20,500 bases of DNA from a virus (Duplodnaviria; Heunggongvirae; Uroviricota; Caudoviricetes). Made by a program: the position numbers and the translations under genes. The stretch lies in the IMG/VR virus record IMGVR_UViG_2778261532_000014. The stretch is one strand, 5' to 3'. Positions 13,577 through 19,992 of the stretch are shown here, piece after piece. Below the pieces are notes generated by a model. It had not been told where the DNA came from, did not search any database, and saw only the letters and a program-made list of their open reading frames with translations. Position 1 is the stretch's first letter. Every line of letters starts with the position of its first letter.

Positions 13577-14572
13577 GTGACCGTGAGAGCACTACTGACC
13601 CCTGAAATTGCCCCGCGTATGGGGATCGTATTGTTCAGGCCAGGTTCAGAGTTGATGCCCCTGTTTATGCAGGGGCGTGTCCTGCTGGAGCCTGAGCCGG
13701 AACGTTATTCATCTTTCGCCAGTGGTGCCGTTCCGGCGGCATCACAACCGCTGGCGGATGATCCTGCCGTTCGGGCCGTGTTCCGCAATGAGGCAGTGAT
13801 CCGTCGTGCTGGTGGCGTGGAATGTCTTGAAAGCTGGTTACTTCGTGAAAAAGGCTGCCAGTGGCCTCATTCCGACTGGCACAGCGAGAACATGACCACA
13901 ATGCGACACGCTCCGGGCGCAATCCGTCTGTGCTGGCACTGCGATAACCAGCTGCGCGATCAGTTCACGGAACGGCTGGAATCAATGGCAACGGATAACT
14001 GTGCCCGCTGGGTGTTGTCTGTTGTGCGTCGGGATCTCGGTTTTGATGACAGTCACGTTGTGACAATGCCGGAACTGTGCTGGTGGCTGATTCGTAATGA
14101 TCTGGCGGATGCCTTACCGGAAAGTGCAGCCCGTAAGGCACTGAGATTACCGAAGCCTGTTGTGCCGTCTGTCACCCGGGAAAGTGACCTTGTGCCTTCG
14201 GTTCCTGCCACCAGCATCATCCAGGATAAAGCGAAAAAGGTGCTGGCGCTGAAAGTGGATCCGGAGTCGCCGGAGTCTTTTATGTTACGCCCAAAACGTC
14301 GCCGCTGGGTTAATGAAAAGTACACGCGCTGGGTTAAGACACAGCCGTGTGCATGTTGTGGAAAGCCCGCTGATGATCCCCACCACCTGATAGGCCACGG
14401 TCAGTGTGGAATGGGTACAAAAGCGCATGACCTTTTTGTGTTGCCTTTGTGCAGAAAGCATCACGACGAGCTGCATGCGGATACCGTGGCATTTGAAGAG
14501 AGGTATGGCTCCCAGCTGGAGCTGATATTTCGTTTTATCGATCGTGCGCTGGCAATTGGCGTGCTGGCCTGA
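13577..14572 (+). CDS. DUF968 domain protein (HNH/zinc-finger-like C-terminus)
   Basis: 331-aa ORF; C-terminal CACCGKP...HHLIGHG...CRKHHDELH motif typical of DUF968; start codon uncertain (GTG 13577 or downstream). Confidence 0.75.
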   Translation: MTVRALLTPEIAPRMGIVLFRPGSELMPLFMQGRVLLEPEPERYSSFASGAVPAASQPLADDPAVRAVFRNEAVIRRAGGVECLESWLLREKGCQWPHSDWHSENMTTMRHAPGAIRLCWHCDNQLRDQFTERLESMATDNCARWVLSVVRRDLGFDDSHVVTMPELCWWLIRNDLADALPESAARKALRLPKPVVPSVTRESDLVPSVPATSIIQDKAKKVLALKVDPESPESFMLRPKRRRWVNEKYTRWVKTQPCACCGKPADDPHHLIGHGQCGMGTKAHDLFVLPLCRKHHDELHADTVAFEERYGSQLELIFRFIDRALAIGVLA

Positions 14573-14589
14573 TTTTGTGGAGAAAGTTG

Positions 14590-14952
14590 ATGCGTGATAT
14601 TCAAATGGTTCTGGATCGTTGGGGAGCATGGGCGGCGAGTGATAGTTCAGGAGTAGACTATTCTCCTATAGCTGCTGGGTTTAAAGGGCTTCTTCCCTAT
14701 ACAAGCAAAACACGTCAGGCTTGTTCAGATAGTGATGCATTAATTATTGAAGGTTGTCTTGCTCTTCTTAAAAAGCGAAAACCGTACGAGCATTCTTTGA
14801 TTGTGGCCCATTACCTGTATGGCATCTCGAAAAGAAAGCTTGCAAGAGCTCGCAAAAAAGATGAGAAATTGATACGTATAGAGATACAGATGGCTGAAGG
14901 GTTTATTGATGGATGCCTTTCAATGCTGGATGTTAAACTTGAAATGGAGTAG
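14590..14952 (+). CDS. Late-gene antitermination protein Q (QuuD/Q82-like family)
   Basis: 120 aa from ATG 14590 with GGAG RBS; MRDIQMVLDRWGAWAA N-terminus and overall pattern match DLP12 QuuD-type Q proteins as recalled. Confidence 0.85.
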   Translation: MRDIQMVLDRWGAWAASDSSGVDYSPIAAGFKGLLPYTSKTRQACSDSDALIIEGCLALLKKRKPYEHSLIVAHYLYGISKRKLARARKKDEKLIRIEIQMAEGFIDGCLSMLDVKLEME

Positions 14953-14980
14953 AAAAAAGGGCATTTCTGCCCTTTTTAAA
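14953..14980. terminator. Bidirectional Rho-independent terminator between Q and the convergent cassette
   Basis: Hairpin gggca-tttc-tgccc flanked by A6 upstream and T5 downstream; serves the stop of Q (14952) and the stop of the minus-strand gene (14976). Confidence 0.7.
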
Positions 14981-15419
14981 TGTGGGGGAGTATCCAGTTT
15001 ACTTTTCTCCATGTAAAGGCAAAAGTTATTACTGAAATGATAAGAAGAGATAAAGATTCGATAATTAAAATAAATTCTATTTTTTCTCCATGTAACAATG
15101 TCTTTTCATTGGCAAACATTGCTATCAAAGCAATAACGCATGCCGTAATTAAAGATGCACCTGCGGTTAATAGATTTACAATAATAACTTGAAGTATGTT
15201 GTTGTTTTTTAATGCTTTTATTATTCCATTTGAGTTTTCGCTAGCAGCACTAAAAATTGATTTTGTGGCTAAAATAAAACCAAATAAAATACCGGATACA
15301 GTTGAAATAACCCCGGAGGCTGTAAGTATGTCAGCATGCCCCATCTGAGGGATATACCTCAGTAGGAACAAGGTGCAAAAAACACTTACAATCAGGTTTC
15401 TTAAGTATTTCAATAACAT
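14976..15419 (-). CDS. Four-TM small membrane protein (RexB-like candidate effector)
   Basis: 147-aa ORF with four predicted hydrophobic helices; 3-nt gap to upstream gene; very AT-rich. Confidence 0.7.
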   Translation of the reverse strand: MLLKYLRNLIVSVFCTLFLLRYIPQMGHADILTASGVISTVSGILFGFILATKSIFSAASENSNGIIKALKNNNILQVIIVNLLTAGASLITACVIALIAMFANEKTLLHGEKIEFILIIESLSLLIISVITFAFTWRKVNWILPHI

Positions 15420-15422
15420 ATC

Positions 15423-16364
15423 CTATACCTTCTTTTTGCTGATATCGTATTGCTTAAGGTATTCATTGTTATCAATTTTAGCAGAAATCATGGCTTGCAG
15501 AACATCACTATCAGTGCCATAACCATTAACGGTATATATGTTTTTTTCTGAAATGAGTACCTGATCAAGAAGACTTTGTTCAACGGTATTTTTGGGCTGT
15601 GTTACTGCCGCTTTTTTTACAATTCCCGGCATTTTTTCAAGGAGTTCTTTAATACCATCCTTAACGAGATCTGATAAATAACCTTTGACTTTTACTCTCC
15701 CTGATGCACGTCCCCTTAGATTTAACTTGAGACGTGTTCCACCCAGCCCTACCATCATATTTACCAGTTCCTTAGAAAATGAACTATTTAGCTGGTAATT
15801 TGTTGCATCAAAGTTCCTGGGAGCAGCCAGGACAATATCACAACTTCTCAAAGTACTTCCTGTTTCAAGTAGCTCTTTGACGCTCTCTTTTTTCCAGATG
15901 GCTTGGAATGAAAAGTTATTTCCAGGATTACCACTCTGGCTGTAAAGCAGATAAGCTAAATCCGATTCTTTCGGCCCAAGATGATTTTGAGTTAATATTA
16001 AAATATCACTATCGTAATAATATAAAAAATAGGTTCTTTCGACTATGTATTTTTTATCATCTAGTGGTATGTTGTGCTCATTCCAGTGTTCATCACCAAT
16101 ATAAGGAAGGAGATACTCTTCTCGTGAGCATGACATGTAGCCGAAGAAATATTTAGCTTTTGTATCTTTATTTATAAAAGCTATTTTTAACTTTTTATTT
16201 CTATAGATGGTATCAAAATGATTATTCGTAACGGTTACGCAAGTATTATACAGATTTTCAATTGCTTGCTTAGCAACTGAATGGCTGCGGATAGTCCCAG
16301 AACTGCTGGTGTAAAAACCAATTTTAAGTTTTTTTTGTTTCTTTGATTGCGCAATAGTAGCCAT
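15423..16364 (-). CDS. Hypothetical 313-aa cytoplasmic protein (candidate sensor partner of the 4-TM protein)
   Basis: AAGG RBS 7 nt upstream of ATG at 16364; Lys/Asn/Tyr-rich AT-rich composition; no motif I can assign. Confidence 0.7.
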   Translation of the reverse strand: MATIAQSKKQKKLKIGFYTSSSGTIRSHSVAKQAIENLYNTCVTVTNNHFDTIYRNKKLKIAFINKDTKAKYFFGYMSCSREEYLLPYIGDEHWNEHNIPLDDKKYIVERTYFLYYYDSDILILTQNHLGPKESDLAYLLYSQSGNPGNNFSFQAIWKKESVKELLETGSTLRSCDIVLAAPRNFDATNYQLNSSFSKELVNMMVGLGGTRLKLNLRGRASGRVKVKGYLSDLVKDGIKELLEKMPGIVKKAAVTQPKNTVEQSLLDQVLISEKNIYTVNGYGTDSDVLQAMISAKIDNNEYLKQYDISKKKV

Positions 16365-16497
16365 GTTAAACCTTAGTATACTAATAATTTCTTATGGATC
16401 TTATTTTTTATATGGCTTTAATTTAGCAAAAAAAAATTACCGCGGTCCGCAAATTTTATCTTAATCTGTTAAGAGTGGTTACTTCGCCACACAGCTT

Positions 16498-16521
16498 AAA
16501 CCCGCCGTCGAGCGGTTTTTT
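16498..16521 (+). terminator. Possible plus-strand terminator-like hairpin
   Basis: acccgc-cgtcga-gcggtt stem-loop followed by TTTTTT; no annotated plus-strand gene ends here, so the terminated transcript is unknown. Confidence 0.35.
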
Positions 16522-16619
16522 GTACCTGTAAACCTGGTGCAGTACAGTAAACACGCTGGTGGTCGTGAATACTGACTTTTTATCTTGCTGGCTTTTTAGA
16601 CAAGAGTTATTGGTATGTC

Positions 16620-16847
16620 ATGTTAACCAGAAGGGAAAAAGACATGCTAAAACAGCAAGATATGACAGAAACCGCCGCCGCAGTCCTTCATTTCTTACCT
16701 GCTGACAAGTGGGTAACGCCACGCATGATGACGAGAACTACCGGAGTAAGCGAAGCCCAGTGCCAGTTAATACTGACTCAGTTAGTTCTGGCGGGTCTGG
16801 CGAAGGATAACGGCGGGTACGGGAATAAATTCAGACGCTGCCAGTAA
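16620..16847 (+). CDS. Hypothetical small protein upstream of methyltransferase
   Basis: 75-aa ORF; start ambiguous (ATG 16620 or 16644); weak RBS. Confidence 0.45.
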   Translation: MLTRREKDMLKQQDMTETAAAVLHFLPADKWVTPRMMTRTTGVSEAQCQLILTQLVLAGLAKDNGGYGNKFRRCQ

Positions 16848-16997
16848 TGGCGGTTTCCTGCTGTGAAAATGGGCGGCTGGTGGGTGTTGGTAGCACCTGC
16901 CAGCCATTCGCTCATGCTTACTGGTCACAAGCGAACCACGGCCCACTGCTTTAGCGCAAAAGCAGAGTGAGCCTACCAGAGTTACGCTTACTGATCC

Positions 16998-18056
16998 ATG
17001 AAAAATACTGTAAAAATAAACAGTGTTGATTTGATCAACGCTGATTGCCTGCATTTTATTCAGTCCCTGCCTGATGATTCCATTGACCTGATTGTTACCG
17101 ATCCGCCGTACTTCAAGGTGAAACCCAACGGCTGGGACAATCAGTGGAAAGGGGACGAAGGTTACCTTAAGTGGCTGGACCACTGTCTGGCCCAGTTCTG
17201 GCGGGTGTTGAAACCTGCCGGAAGCCTTTACCTGTTCTGTGGACATCGCCTGGCATCTGATATTGAGATCATGATGCGTGAACGTTTCAACGTGCTTAAC
17301 CATATCATCTGGGCGAAGCCGTCCGGACGTTGGAACGGGTGCAACAAGGAAAGCCTGCGGGCGTATTTTCCGGCAACAGAGCGCATTCTGTTTGCCGGAC
17401 ATTATCAGGGGCCATATCAGCTAAAAAATGATGGCTATGCGGCAAAGGGCAGGGCTCTGAAACAGCATGTGATGGCCCCGCTGATTTCTTACTTTTGTGA
17501 TGCGCGTGCGGCCCTGGGGATTACGGCAAAACAGATTGTGGATGCTACAGGAAAGAAAAACATGGTGTCGCACTGGTTCAGTGCCAGTCAGTGGCAGCTA
17601 CCGAATGAAAGCGATTATCTGAAATTACAGGCACTGTTTGCCCGAGTGGCAGAAGAGAAGCACCAGTGCGGAGAACTGGAAAAGCCACATTACCAACTGG
17701 TCAGCACATACAGTGAACTGAACCGGCAGTATACGGAACTGCTGAGTGAATATAAAAATTTGCGGCGGTATTTCGGTGTGACTGTGCAGGTGCCGTACAC
17801 CGATGTGTGGACGCATAAACCGGTGCAGTACTATCCCGGGAAGCACCCGTGCGAAAAACCGGCAGAAATGTTGCAGCAGATAATCAGCGCAAGCAGCCGT
17901 CCGGGAGACCTGGTTGCAGATTTCTTCATGGGGTCAGGTTCGACAGTCAAAGCAGCGATGGCGCAGGGACGTCGTGTGATTGGTGTTGAGCTGGAGACTG
18001 AGCGTTTTGAGCAGACGGTCAGGGAAGTACAGGATTTAGTCAGTCAGAACGGATGA
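16998..18056 (+). CDS. Orphan N6-adenine DNA methyltransferase (beta-class, DPPY motif)
   Basis: 352-aa ORF; motif IV TDPPYF near N-terminus and motif I FFMGSGST near C-terminus; no adjacent restriction endonuclease gene. Confidence 0.9.
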   Translation: MKNTVKINSVDLINADCLHFIQSLPDDSIDLIVTDPPYFKVKPNGWDNQWKGDEGYLKWLDHCLAQFWRVLKPAGSLYLFCGHRLASDIEIMMRERFNVLNHIIWAKPSGRWNGCNKESLRAYFPATERILFAGHYQGPYQLKNDGYAAKGRALKQHVMAPLISYFCDARAALGITAKQIVDATGKKNMVSHWFSASQWQLPNESDYLKLQALFARVAEEKHQCGELEKPHYQLVSTYSELNRQYTELLSEYKNLRRYFGVTVQVPYTDVWTHKPVQYYPGKHPCEKPAEMLQQIISASSRPGDLVADFFMGSGSTVKAAMAQGRRVIGVELETERFEQTVREVQDLVSQNG

Positions 18057-18096
18057 ACTTGCAGAATTAGTTACGTACCGTTATTATCCTGCGCCC

Positions 18097-18172
18097 GGCC
18101 CTTTAGCTCAGTGGTTAGAGCGAGCGACTCATAATCGCCAGGTCGCTGGTTCAAATCCAGCAAGGGCCACCA
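18097..18172 (+). tRNA. tRNA-Ile2 (anticodon CAU; ileX/ileZ-like; Met not excluded)
   Basis: 76 nt; perfect 7-bp acceptor stem, D-arm GCTC/GAGC, anticodon loop CTCATAA, T-arm GCTGG-TTCAAAT-CCAGC, encoded CCA; close to E. coli ileX as recalled. Confidence 0.85.
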
Positions 18173-18174
18173 TT

Positions 18175-18251
18175 CCGCCACCAGCTCATCTGGATAGAGC
18201 ATCAGCCTTCTAAGTTGATTGTGCGAGGTTCGAGCACCCGGTGGCGGACCA
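18175..18251 (+). tRNA. tRNA-Arg (anticodon UCU, AGA-decoding) with imperfect T-stem
   Basis: 77 nt; perfect acceptor stem CCGCCAC/GTGGCGG, canonical D-arm, anticodon loop CTTCTAA, encoded CCA; T-stem has two mismatches including position 53-61. Confidence 0.6.
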
Positions 18252-18790
18252 TTCCATGCAAGTTTAGCTGGCAGCGCTATTAGCTCGGCGTAATTGGGAT
18301 ATTCGTCAGGCTCTGTTAGTTCACCATATTGCGTCATAGATTTTCTATCAACGATACAATTAACGTTAAATGTTGCAAAAACTCCTGCTGATGTAAGTCT
18401 TGCGATCTGTTATTCCCGGAGTGTTTCCTGTTATTTATTGCGACAACTGAATCAGTGTGTTCCCAAATCGTTTATATTTGTGTTAGTTTTTACGCAATCT
18501 CCTGTGCGAAATCAGAATTCTGGATGGAATAACATAAACTGTATGTAATTGATACAGATTTATACATATTTTTAAATCTGAAAACTAATTAGTTTTTGAT
18601 GTCATATGAATTATCGGTAATATTACTCCCGACCCGGAAGACAGCAAGTTTATGTTCACAGCGGTGTTCCCCGCTGTCTTGCGGTTCATTGTAGGCTTCC
18701 GTTCAATCATATTGAAGGTCTGTTATCAGTATCATTATTGTGGTTACGGAGGCCTGCTCTTTATTCAGGTATCGTATAGTAGCTATTACC

Positions 18791-18836
18791 GCAGCCTTCT
18801 GGGTTGGCGATGCAGGTTCGATTCCTGTTCTCCACA
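18791..18836 (+). other. tRNA-like 3' fragment (anticodon-arm-like plus T-arm with B-box)
   Basis: GCAGG-TTCGATT-CCTGT T-arm (B-box GGTTCGATTCC at 18815-18825) preceded by a loop CTTCTGG with UCU; no matching 5' acceptor strand or D-arm found. Confidence 0.35.
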
Positions 18837-18992
18837 ACTTCATTGTTTTATTTCTGACGGACTTTTACAGCACTGGCGGTTTTCCGAGTTGAATAATAGT
18901 TCAGGTTTTTTATTGTTCTCCATTCTGCAATAGCGGATACAGTGCTGTTCTTTTTTTTGTTCATGAAGTTGCGTTATTGGAAAAAAGTCGTT

Positions 18993-19068
18993 GCCAGAAT
19001 GAGTCGTTGCCTGTTTTGGTGCCTGCGATTTGCCAGAATTGCGTTGCAATCTGACGACTCATTCTGGC
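18993..19068. repeat. 15-bp perfect inverted repeat with 46-nt spacer
   Basis: gccagaatgagtcgt (18993-19007) and acgactcattctggc (19054-19068); the spacer contains a third gccagaat copy. Confidence 0.5.
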
Positions 19069-19122
19069 GGCGACCATACTTAAAATAAACGCTGTTCCAC
19101 TCTTACATGTTGAATGTGTTAG

Positions 19123-19147
19123 CCCGTCTCCGGACGGGTATTTTTTT
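19123..19147 (+). terminator. Rho-independent terminator
   Basis: cccgtc-tccg-gacggg hairpin followed by TA + T7. Confidence 0.65.
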
Positions 19148-19320
19148 GCCTGTAGCCAGGCCCGCTACTGCGAGCTTTTTTCATATCCGCGCCACGTCCG
19201 GTGCACATCAAAAACCACAGAGCCTTTCAGGGGGGGGGAGCTTACGGGATGGTCGGTGTGACTTTCTCTGTGGGCTGCTCATCCCGGGGCGAGGCTCTCC
19301 CACTAAAAGGAAACGTCACG

Positions 19321-19746: not shown

Positions 19747-19992
19747 AAAGTGCACGTCTTGTGCTGGCTGCCATCCTGCTGTTTCTGGTAGTGGCAGTAG
19801 ATTTTGCCGGACGGCTGATGTCGGTTCTGGCTGATGGCGTGCTGGTAGCGATGGTGATGGTTGTTCTCTGGCCTTTACTGCGCAAATCTGAATAACACCA
19901 CACAAAAGGCATCTGTGGGTGCAGGTGTCTTTGACGGGGTGTTTTTTGGTGGGCCGCTGGTGGCTCTTTTTTATTTACAGGAGAAAAAAGGT

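Follow-up and report, generated by a model that had tools for sequence, protein, structure and literature searches.

In textbook and structural descriptions, the gene of the late antiterminator Q is directly followed by its late promoter, pR'. In phage 21, a consensus -35, the element bound by Q (QBE), a -10, the transcription start site, the sigma-dependent pause element and the terminator are packed within about 90 nt directly after Q. There, the -35 is located 7 nt past the Q stop codon, the QBE is a direct repeat of TGAGCA at -27..-12, between -35 and -10, the pause element TAAGCTG lies at +2..+8, and the late transcript is about 50 nt long. In phage 933W and in the Stx2 phage Sp5, Q and the promoter overlap at the 3' end of the gene, and there is no cargo between them. 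A porin moron, lc, is found between Q and the lysis genes of phage PA-2, and in the cryptic prophage DLP12 of Escherichia coli K-12 the porin gene nmpC occupies the interval between the Q gene quuD and the lysis genes. For the Stx2 phage of strain Sakai (Sp5), Sy et al. mapped the primary pR' start by differential RNA sequencing (dRNA-seq), 258 nt upstream of a 3' end obtained by Term-seq (PMC7547250). Thus, the promoter module of 933W and Sp5, morons between Q and the lysis genes (stx, nmpC) and Rex-type systems are already known. The analysis presented here concerns the virus record IMGVR_UViG_2778261532_000014, a stretch of DNA of 20,500 nt, analysed as a whole and called the window below, which by its sequence is a lambdoid prophage. 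In this prophage, the late module, composed of pR', a candidate Q-binding palindrome, the leader and the terminator tR', has probably been moved 1.47 kb away from Q by a self-contained antisense cassette of two genes.

The Q gene was located on the plus strand at 14590..14952. Its open reading frame (ORF) is open from a TTG at 14575 and its stop codon ends at 14952, and the likely start is the ATG at 14590, preceded by a GGAG ribosome-binding site. The protein matches the Pfam family Phage_antitermQ (PF06530), to which phage 21 Q also belongs, over its full length with 175 bits (cut-off 26) and E = 5e-52. It shares 47% identity with 933W Q and 49% with K-12 QuuD, and on these grounds it was assigned to the late antiterminators of the Q21/Q933/QuuD family; the similarity to Q21 of the solved structures 6P18 and 6JNX is distant (E = 0.002). 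The putative cognate module of promoter, QBE and terminator is present downstream of the cassette.

A first-pass annotation of the window had noticed a plus-strand hairpin with a T-tract at 16498-16521 and had suggested that the AT-rich stretch 5' of it could be a displaced late promoter. Folding confirmed the hairpin, with stems at 16502-16505 and 16512-16515 and six T residues at 16516-21, and the suggestion on the AT-rich stretch was supported by homology. Positions 16428-16526 are homologous to the 933W/Sp5 region annotated as pR', qut and terminator (80% identity over 55 nt), which in 933W reads ...TTTACGATCGTAAAAATCTGCATATCATGATAAGAGTGGTTACATTGCCAC...CCCGCCGATGCGCGGGTTTTTTTGTACC. By this homology, pR' was placed at 16428..16473 on the plus strand, with the -10 TAATCT at 16462-16467. 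In Sp5, counting back from the terminator U-tract in the Sakai sequence, +1 falls on the G/A of the invariant TAAGAGTGG, 7 nt after the -10 TATCAT, and this position corresponds to 16473/16474 here. From a start at A16474, a leader of about 48 nt (16474..16521, plus strand) would run through the conserved initial transcribed sequence AGTGGTTACTTCGCCACA to tR', formed by the hairpin and its U6 at +29..+48; its length is similar to that of the late transcript of phage 21. The position of the -10, the TAAGAGTGG start motif and the first GC hairpin with its U-tract are the same as in 933W and Sp5. Since the block is homologous to the mapped Sp5 start and shares the compact layout of phage 21, 16428-16521 is read as a putative Q-dependent late promoter module, in which the hairpin would be tR' and the AT-rich stretch before it pR'. 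Activity as a promoter and dependence on Q would be expected from this homology. An alternative register, with TGnTAAGAG as an extended -10 and a start near 16482, was also considered, and it was discarded because the dRNA-seq start of Sp5 and the 258-nt distance place +1 on TAAGAGTGG.

The order of the block is kept in the Q family: an A-rich run, a short palindrome, about 11 variable bases, TAnnnT, G-N-TAAGAGTGG, the leader, and a GC hairpin with a U-tract. Positions 1, 2 and 6 of the -10 (T, A and T) are invariant in an alignment of six loci and recur across the family, and the register from TAnnnT to G-N-TAAGAGTGG is constant across the located loci. In the prophage, the conserved A-tract occupies 16428-16436 on the plus strand (-46..-38), where the proximal subsite of an UP element would sit. 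A hairpin with a strength of at least -8 kcal/mol is found in 54 of 82 loci, with differing stem sequences, and the GC hairpin with its U-tract mostly ends at about +45 to +60. A profile of 16428-16523 gives E = 1e-27 in the prophage stretch, with one copy only. In SfV and Ayreon, which have an unrelated Q of 250 amino acids (aa), homology begins only at the hairpin, from 16499 rightwards, so the 70 nt of 16428-16498 are specific to this Q family. Matches to the core of the block occur in 3,306 of 5,426 complete E. coli genomes; among the matches listed it is unannotated, K-12 DLP12 included, where no feature is annotated over the pR' block. As a separate observation, three tandem pR'-like modules follow Q in Enterobacter sp. 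BIGb0383 (L018:6380-6760), each with TAACGCGGTCCGC, TAnnnT and a leader; modules 1 and 3 then show a clear GC hairpin with a T-run, and the array could be a multi-promoter or multi-terminator late leader.

The short palindrome of the block, GCGGTCCGC at 16442-16450 on the plus strand (-32..-24), is a candidate Q-binding element because its type tracks the Q clade and because of its position. In place of the direct repeat bound by Q21, the Q933/QuuD family has a palindrome, of type GCGGTCCGC in the clade of this prophage, GCGTACGC in the largest clade, TCGTWACGA in Photorhabdus and Xenorhabdus, ACGATCGT in 933W and ACGTACGT in DLP12. The nearest Q neighbour shares the palindrome type in 78 of 81 cases, a value that was reached in none of 1000 label permutations. 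Against a role in recognition, it must be said that the link between palindrome and Q clade could equally be plain linkage of neighbouring DNA.

Over 14400-17100, the sequence shows 100% identity to a prophage of E. coli EC416 (from pig) and 99.7% to phage cdtI (NC_009514), a complete 47-kb genome of a Cdt-I converting lambdoid phage with the same arrangement of Q, cargo and promoter. The first-pass annotation had further described a bidirectional terminator directly 3' of Q, followed by about 1.4 kb of convergent AT-rich cargo, and both were found where it had placed them; its view that the cargo appears to have inserted exactly between Q and its promoter was supported. The terminator hairpin (A6-GGGCA-TTTC-TGCCC-T5, 14954-14977) starts 2 nt past the Q stop codon. 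Its folding energy is -13.0 kcal/mol for the plus strand, with a z-score of -3.2 relative to shuffles, and -13.4 kcal/mol for the minus strand, with a z-score of -4.0. Since it folds well on both strands, it was assigned as a bidirectional intrinsic terminator; a terminator pattern scan made no call at this position, and the assignment comes from folding. It is missing in relatives with other cargo, which indicates that it belongs to the cassette and not to Q. Two minus-strand ORFs fill 14976-16364, and the GC content over 14850-16500 is 0.29-0.40 versus 0.47-0.59 on either flank. On the left, the junction is with the stop codon of Q, and on the right it is with the block's A-tract; in the empty site of E. 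coli UTAK-18 (L007) the block starts 7 nt past the Q stop.

Regarding the way the cassette arrived, neither terminal inverted repeats, nor a target-site duplication, nor a transposase were found at it. The direct repeats that had been suggested as a check around 14976-16400 were not observed at the borders: the only 9-mer in question, ATGTTAAAC at 14930 and 16363, lies off the junctions and is likely due to chance. In some of the E. coli genomes with the exact cassette, homology stops at 16526 or 16570, and in others it extends into the methylase gene; a DUF6731 pair of 44% identity at the same site precedes a holin module in one context and a methylase module in another. Such a pattern is usual for lambdoid mosaics. 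Given the lack of a target-site duplication and the many different cargoes found at the same site, the cassette more probably came by recombination within the conserved flanks than by transposition into a virgin site.

Both cassette genes lie on the minus strand, with an intergenic gap of 3 nt. The first one (15423..16364) encodes a 313-aa protein of the family DUF6731, on which the literature searches returned nothing; the protein has 45 homologues, mostly in Enterobacterales. The second one (14976..15419) encodes a 147-aa protein with four hydrophobic 19-residue peaks in a Kyte-Doolittle scan, a simple hydropathy measure, which predicts four transmembrane segments; it has no Pfam or PADLOC match. 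The AT-rich divergent intergenic region at 16365..16427 would hold, from the gene layout, the leftward promoter of the cassette (minus strand), and a consensus scan found no convincing sigma-70 site in it. In every case examined, the two genes occur as a pair, in Vibrio as well as in further E. coli prophages that carry them at this position. In the Vibrio contigs L099 and L100, a gene for a 341-aa DUF6731-like protein and one for a 150-aa partner sit among chromosomal metabolic genes with no Q nearby, which indicates that the pair is a mobile unit not tied to the Q hotspot.

An AlphaFold2 model of the 313-aa protein, built from 35 homologue sequences, reached a predicted local distance difference test score (pLDDT) of 81. 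In Foldseek, it matched RexA with E = 1.9e-7 and RdgC with E = 1.6e-4, RexA being the best structural match by two methods, and a RexA-like fold is predicted on this basis. The layout is also that of the RexAB systems of lambda, P. putida (RexABpp) and the actinophages Sbash and CarolAnn (rex-like), that is, a RexA/RdgC-fold protein of about 300 aa followed by a four-transmembrane protein of about 145 aa, prophage-encoded and placed for expression in the lysogen; lambda RexB has 144 aa and is described as a four-helix membrane protein. The 313-aa protein would then be a candidate RexA-like sensor or DNA-binding component, and the 147-aa protein a candidate RexB-like membrane effector. On balance, these model-based likenesses make it fairly probable that the cassette is a RexAB-type exclusion or abortive-infection system.

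Several results weigh against this assignment. The likeness to RexA and RexB is undetectable by sequence: the Pfam families RexA (PF15969) and RexB (PF15968) gave no match at E <= 10, hhalign to RexA/RexB gave a probability of 0.8%, and BLASTP between the membrane proteins, cassette versus RexB, gave E = 0.02. PADLOC has no model for either cassette protein, and the Foldseek TM-scores were low (0.35-0.39), as expected for a hinged two-domain protein. The cassette differs from RexAB in belonging to another Pfam family, DUF6731, and in its place, antisense in the gap from Q to pR' and some 6 kb away from the repressor-like genes, whereas lambda rex is found 3' of cI in the pRM operon. For these reasons, other types of moron were considered, such as a membrane protein for superinfection exclusion together with a chaperone, a toxin-antitoxin pair, or a DNA-binding regulator like RdgC that acts on recombination or on the lysis-lysogeny switch and has a membrane partner. 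The RexA fold is common to RdgC and to kinetochore proteins of other roles, and lambda RexA acts on the bistable switch independently of RexB (PMC11077077), which would suit such a function. Nevertheless, a non-Rex moron is regarded as unlikely, although it is the alternative of most weight here, since RexA clearly stands out among the structural matches, the partner resembles RexB in size and in its four-helix topology, the genes are inherited strictly together, and other cargoes at the hotspot include defence-candidate families.

The gap between Q and pR' was then compared in relatives by a census of one genome per species, covering 80 loci of Enterobacterales that encode Q relatives at 50-90% identity. 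The block profile was found 3' of Q and on the same strand in 76 of the 80 loci. Block and Q stop are at most 24 nt apart, or overlap, in about 19 loci; the interval between them is about 100 nt in 2 loci and 345-2876 nt in about 60. The cargo is AT-rich (GC 0.28-0.47, compared with 0.42-0.59 in the upstream phage genes), and all called cargo genes are antisense to Q in 56 of 60 cargo loci. The cargo proteins form 57 clusters and at least 35 unrelated gene sets, some of which match candidate defence families (PDC-M53A, the PDC-M68A HNH effector and the PDC-S20/PifA-like KAP NTPase). Four other E. coli relatives of the same Q allele group share with the prophage the Q 3' end and the block from about 16428, and they carry as cargo either DUF6602 on the plus strand or minus-strand genes for proteins of 248, 339 and 148 aa. 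In K-12 DLP12, the convergent nmpC, disrupted by IS5, precedes the block (L094:5181-5284), which lies 2.85 kb away from the quuD stop and 115 nt ahead of essD, immediately 5' of the lysis genes; the difference is that the DLP12 cargo is a porin gene and not a Rex-like pair. No statement on the position of the promoter relative to nmpC was found in the K-12 annotation or in the searched literature. Two records from a phage collection, PhiR40_1 and PhiR55_1 (with ECOR13 and E. coli C as the stated hosts), show the same two-piece pattern of matches, and the annotation of PhiR40_1 shows a convergent gene in the gap between Q and pR'. Given the cargo found in the census, its varied gene sets and the same layout in DLP12, this prophage is one instance of a cargo hotspot that recurs between the Q stop and pR' in the Q933/QuuD branch of the Q21 family.

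As an additional observation, many unrelated cargo pairs (L035, L053, L057, L074, L087 and several others) consist of a soluble protein of about 270-380 aa and, after it, a hydrophobic one of about 150-200 aa or about 400 aa. The hydrophobic partners look membrane-spanning, and one listed set combines the partner of about 400 aa with a soluble NA37 (nucleoid-associated) protein. Profile-profile comparison of six soluble and six membrane cargo families, with thin profiles, detected no relationship, and therefore it cannot be claimed that all soluble plus membrane pairs are Rex-like.

An alternative view of the census is that the order Q-cargo-promoter is ancestral in this Q family, this cassette having always been present and the cargo-free loci being secondary deletions. 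Most loci, about 60 of 80, do carry cargo, DLP12 as an old cryptic prophage has the same layout, and DUF6731 cassettes with 44-46% protein identity are found at the same site beside divergent Q genes in E. coli and Xenorhabdus. However, the cargoes of different loci are unrelated to one another even at the profile level and are uniformly AT-richer than their flanks, and the junctions are precise at the Q stop and at the A-tract. Moreover, Q alleles that are more than 90% identical carry differing cargo or none, and the more distant 933W and phage 21, whose promoters are characterised, are empty. The first-pass annotation had named a shared ancestral order among relatives as the result that would speak against an insertion; with mutually unrelated cargoes and empty outgroups, such a history appears quite improbable, and a later arrival of the cassette in the gap is preferred.

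Some results also weigh against the assignment of 16428-16521 as the late promoter module. A sigma-70 scan called no promoter at 16437-16467, pR' being placed by homology instead, and the -35 is poor: the best candidate is TTACCG at 19-bp spacing, with no sigma-70 -35 at 16-18 bp, while 933W has TTTACG at 16 bp. The tR' stem is weak, with 4 GC pairs and -5.7 kcal/mol, and less stable than in 933W or in locus L006. The published Sp5 tR' is a second terminator at +258, for which the prophage has no counterpart. Regarding the pause element, no A2/T6 hexamer is conserved downstream of +3, and AAGAGT overlaps the start at -3..+3; unlike in phage 21, neither a consensus -35 nor a pause element could be assigned. 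Finally, a manual test of the 5' leader hairpin (GTGGT...GCCAC) gave 85% pairing with no double-sided changes and no clear covariation. RNAalifold found no consensus structure in the leader, where indels misalign the terminator, and an Rfam scan of 14900-17000 at a permissive threshold gave nothing relevant, the StxS small RNA of Sp5 being either outside Rfam or unmatched.

With the poor -35, the missing promoter call and, further downstream, an AT-rich stretch of about 1 kb that separates the tRNAs from a TerB-like gene and carries no annotation, it could be argued that 16428-16521 is a mere terminator or small-RNA gene and that the true late promoter lies elsewhere, for instance beyond the tRNAs by the holin genes. 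This is considered very improbable: the homologous Sp5 position is the mapped primary pR' start (PMC7547250), the block is retained 3' of Q on the same strand in nearly all census loci and abuts Q where there is no cargo, as pR' does in phage 21, the DLP12 copy stands just upstream of the holin gene essD, and there is no second copy of the block in the prophage stretch. The difference from Sp5 concerns the RNA further downstream, where the second terminator yields StxS; the prophage shares only the first 54 nt of the 258-nt precursor. In a comparison of 16474-16526 with Sp5 (L091:746-1003), the functional 74-nt StxS part and its terminator are absent here, and the first hairpin of Sp5, the homologue of tR', is evidently read through often enough for the 258-nt RNA to be made.

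That the arrangement is a decay product of a defective prophage in which Q controls nothing is hardly credible, for although many E. coli prophages are cryptic and DLP12, with the same layout, is defective, in this prophage Q, the late-promoter block and the full set of lysis and packaging genes are intact, the phage record PhiR40_1 carries cargo in the same gap, and the nearly identical phage cdtI is a complete genome, reportedly called inducible in the title of its description by Asakura in 2007.

On the preferred reading, in which an antisense cassette separates Q from its late module, the switch would work as follows. After induction, the early-right transcript would yield Q and stop at the bidirectional terminator right after the gene. 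pR' would fire constitutively, as in lambda and Stx phages, and its transcript would stop at tR'. The Q protein would then diffuse over 1.5 kb and act in trans on the polymerase at pR' (start at about 16474), making it terminator-resistant, so that tR' (16502-16521) would be read through into the methylase, tRNA, lysis and packaging genes. Transcription of the cassette in the lysogen would run leftward from its own promoter in 16365-16427 and end at the 14954-14977 terminator. With its own promoter and the shared bidirectional terminator, the cassette would be insulated from early and late phage transcription and expressible in the lysogen, with the DUF6731 protein as a cytoplasmic sensor of RexA fold and the four-helix membrane protein of 147 aa as the effector; both this expression and the defence function are what we infer from layout and structure models. 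Two reasons may be given for the antisense bias of the cargo: with a cargo promoter pointing the same way and 5' of pR'-tR', the lysis genes might be transcribed independently of Q, and cargo in that orientation would be expressed solely in lytic growth.

A wider proposal is put forward tentatively, with rather more doubt than confidence, namely that the Q-pR' gap is a dedicated, orientation-constrained defence hotspot of Enterobacterales Q933/QuuD prophages, anchored by the Q 3' end and the pR' block and mostly occupied by uncharacterised pairs of a soluble and a small multi-pass membrane protein, with the DUF6731 pair as a functional, sequence-orphan RexAB-type abortive-infection system. The P2/P4 hotspots (Rousset 2022) and the lambdoid moron loci likewise have conserved flanks around variable, AT-rich and often defence-related cargo. 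Here, in contrast, the flanks are a regulator gene and its cis site, and near-uniform antisense cargo was not found reported for P2/P4 in the literature consulted. Literature searches found no described Q/pR' hotspot. The location of cargo upstream of pR', between the regulator and its cis site, in about three quarters of the sampled loci and in near-uniform antisense orientation appears not to have been stated in the searched literature, and the same applies to the predicted RexA fold of DUF6731.

In the branch that includes the Q of Shiga-toxin phages, the adjacency of Q and pR' is thus broken in most sampled prophages by 0.35-2.9 kb of antisense cargo. In old genetic work, lambda Q and P22 gp23 are said to act preferentially in cis, and so this routine separation is mildly surprising and can be tested, the separated loci being natural constructs for asking whether cis preference matters. 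If the defence-hotspot proposal is true, cis preference of Q would not be needed in this family, and its Q proteins would recognise a clade-specific palindrome and not the direct repeat of Q21, pointing to another loading geometry. A variable site with many unknown gene pairs, some of them similar to candidate defence families, is flanked by the conserved Q 3' end and the pR' block of about 95 nt and can be mined for new anti-phage systems. DUF6731 gains a testable function as a candidate RexA-like protein, and an annotation gap is filled for the widespread, unannotated core of the pR' block.

Regarding the neighbouring genes, RusA, KilA-N and DUF968 are encoded upstream of Q in the typical order of the nin region. 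Among the first genes 3' of tR' (16620..18251), all on the plus strand and presumably Q-dependent by their position, are a small ORF annotated in RefSeq (16644-16847), a DNA N6/N4 methyltransferase gene (16998-18056) and two tRNA genes (18097-18172 and 18175-18251); the holin, endolysin and terminase genes are located beyond the tRNAs. The tRNA-Met(cat) called at 18097-18172 corresponds to a tRNA-Ile (ileZ-like) in RefSeq. ARAGORN also called a 92-nt tRNA-Arg(tct) at 19752-19843, inside the annotated DUF3927 coding sequence of the identical EC416 prophage, where there is no tRNA annotation, which makes a false positive probable. An AT-rich stretch of about 1 kb inside the late operon, from the tRNAs to the TerB-family gene (18300-19300, GC 0.33-0.46), has no annotated gene and may be another cargo or remnant site.

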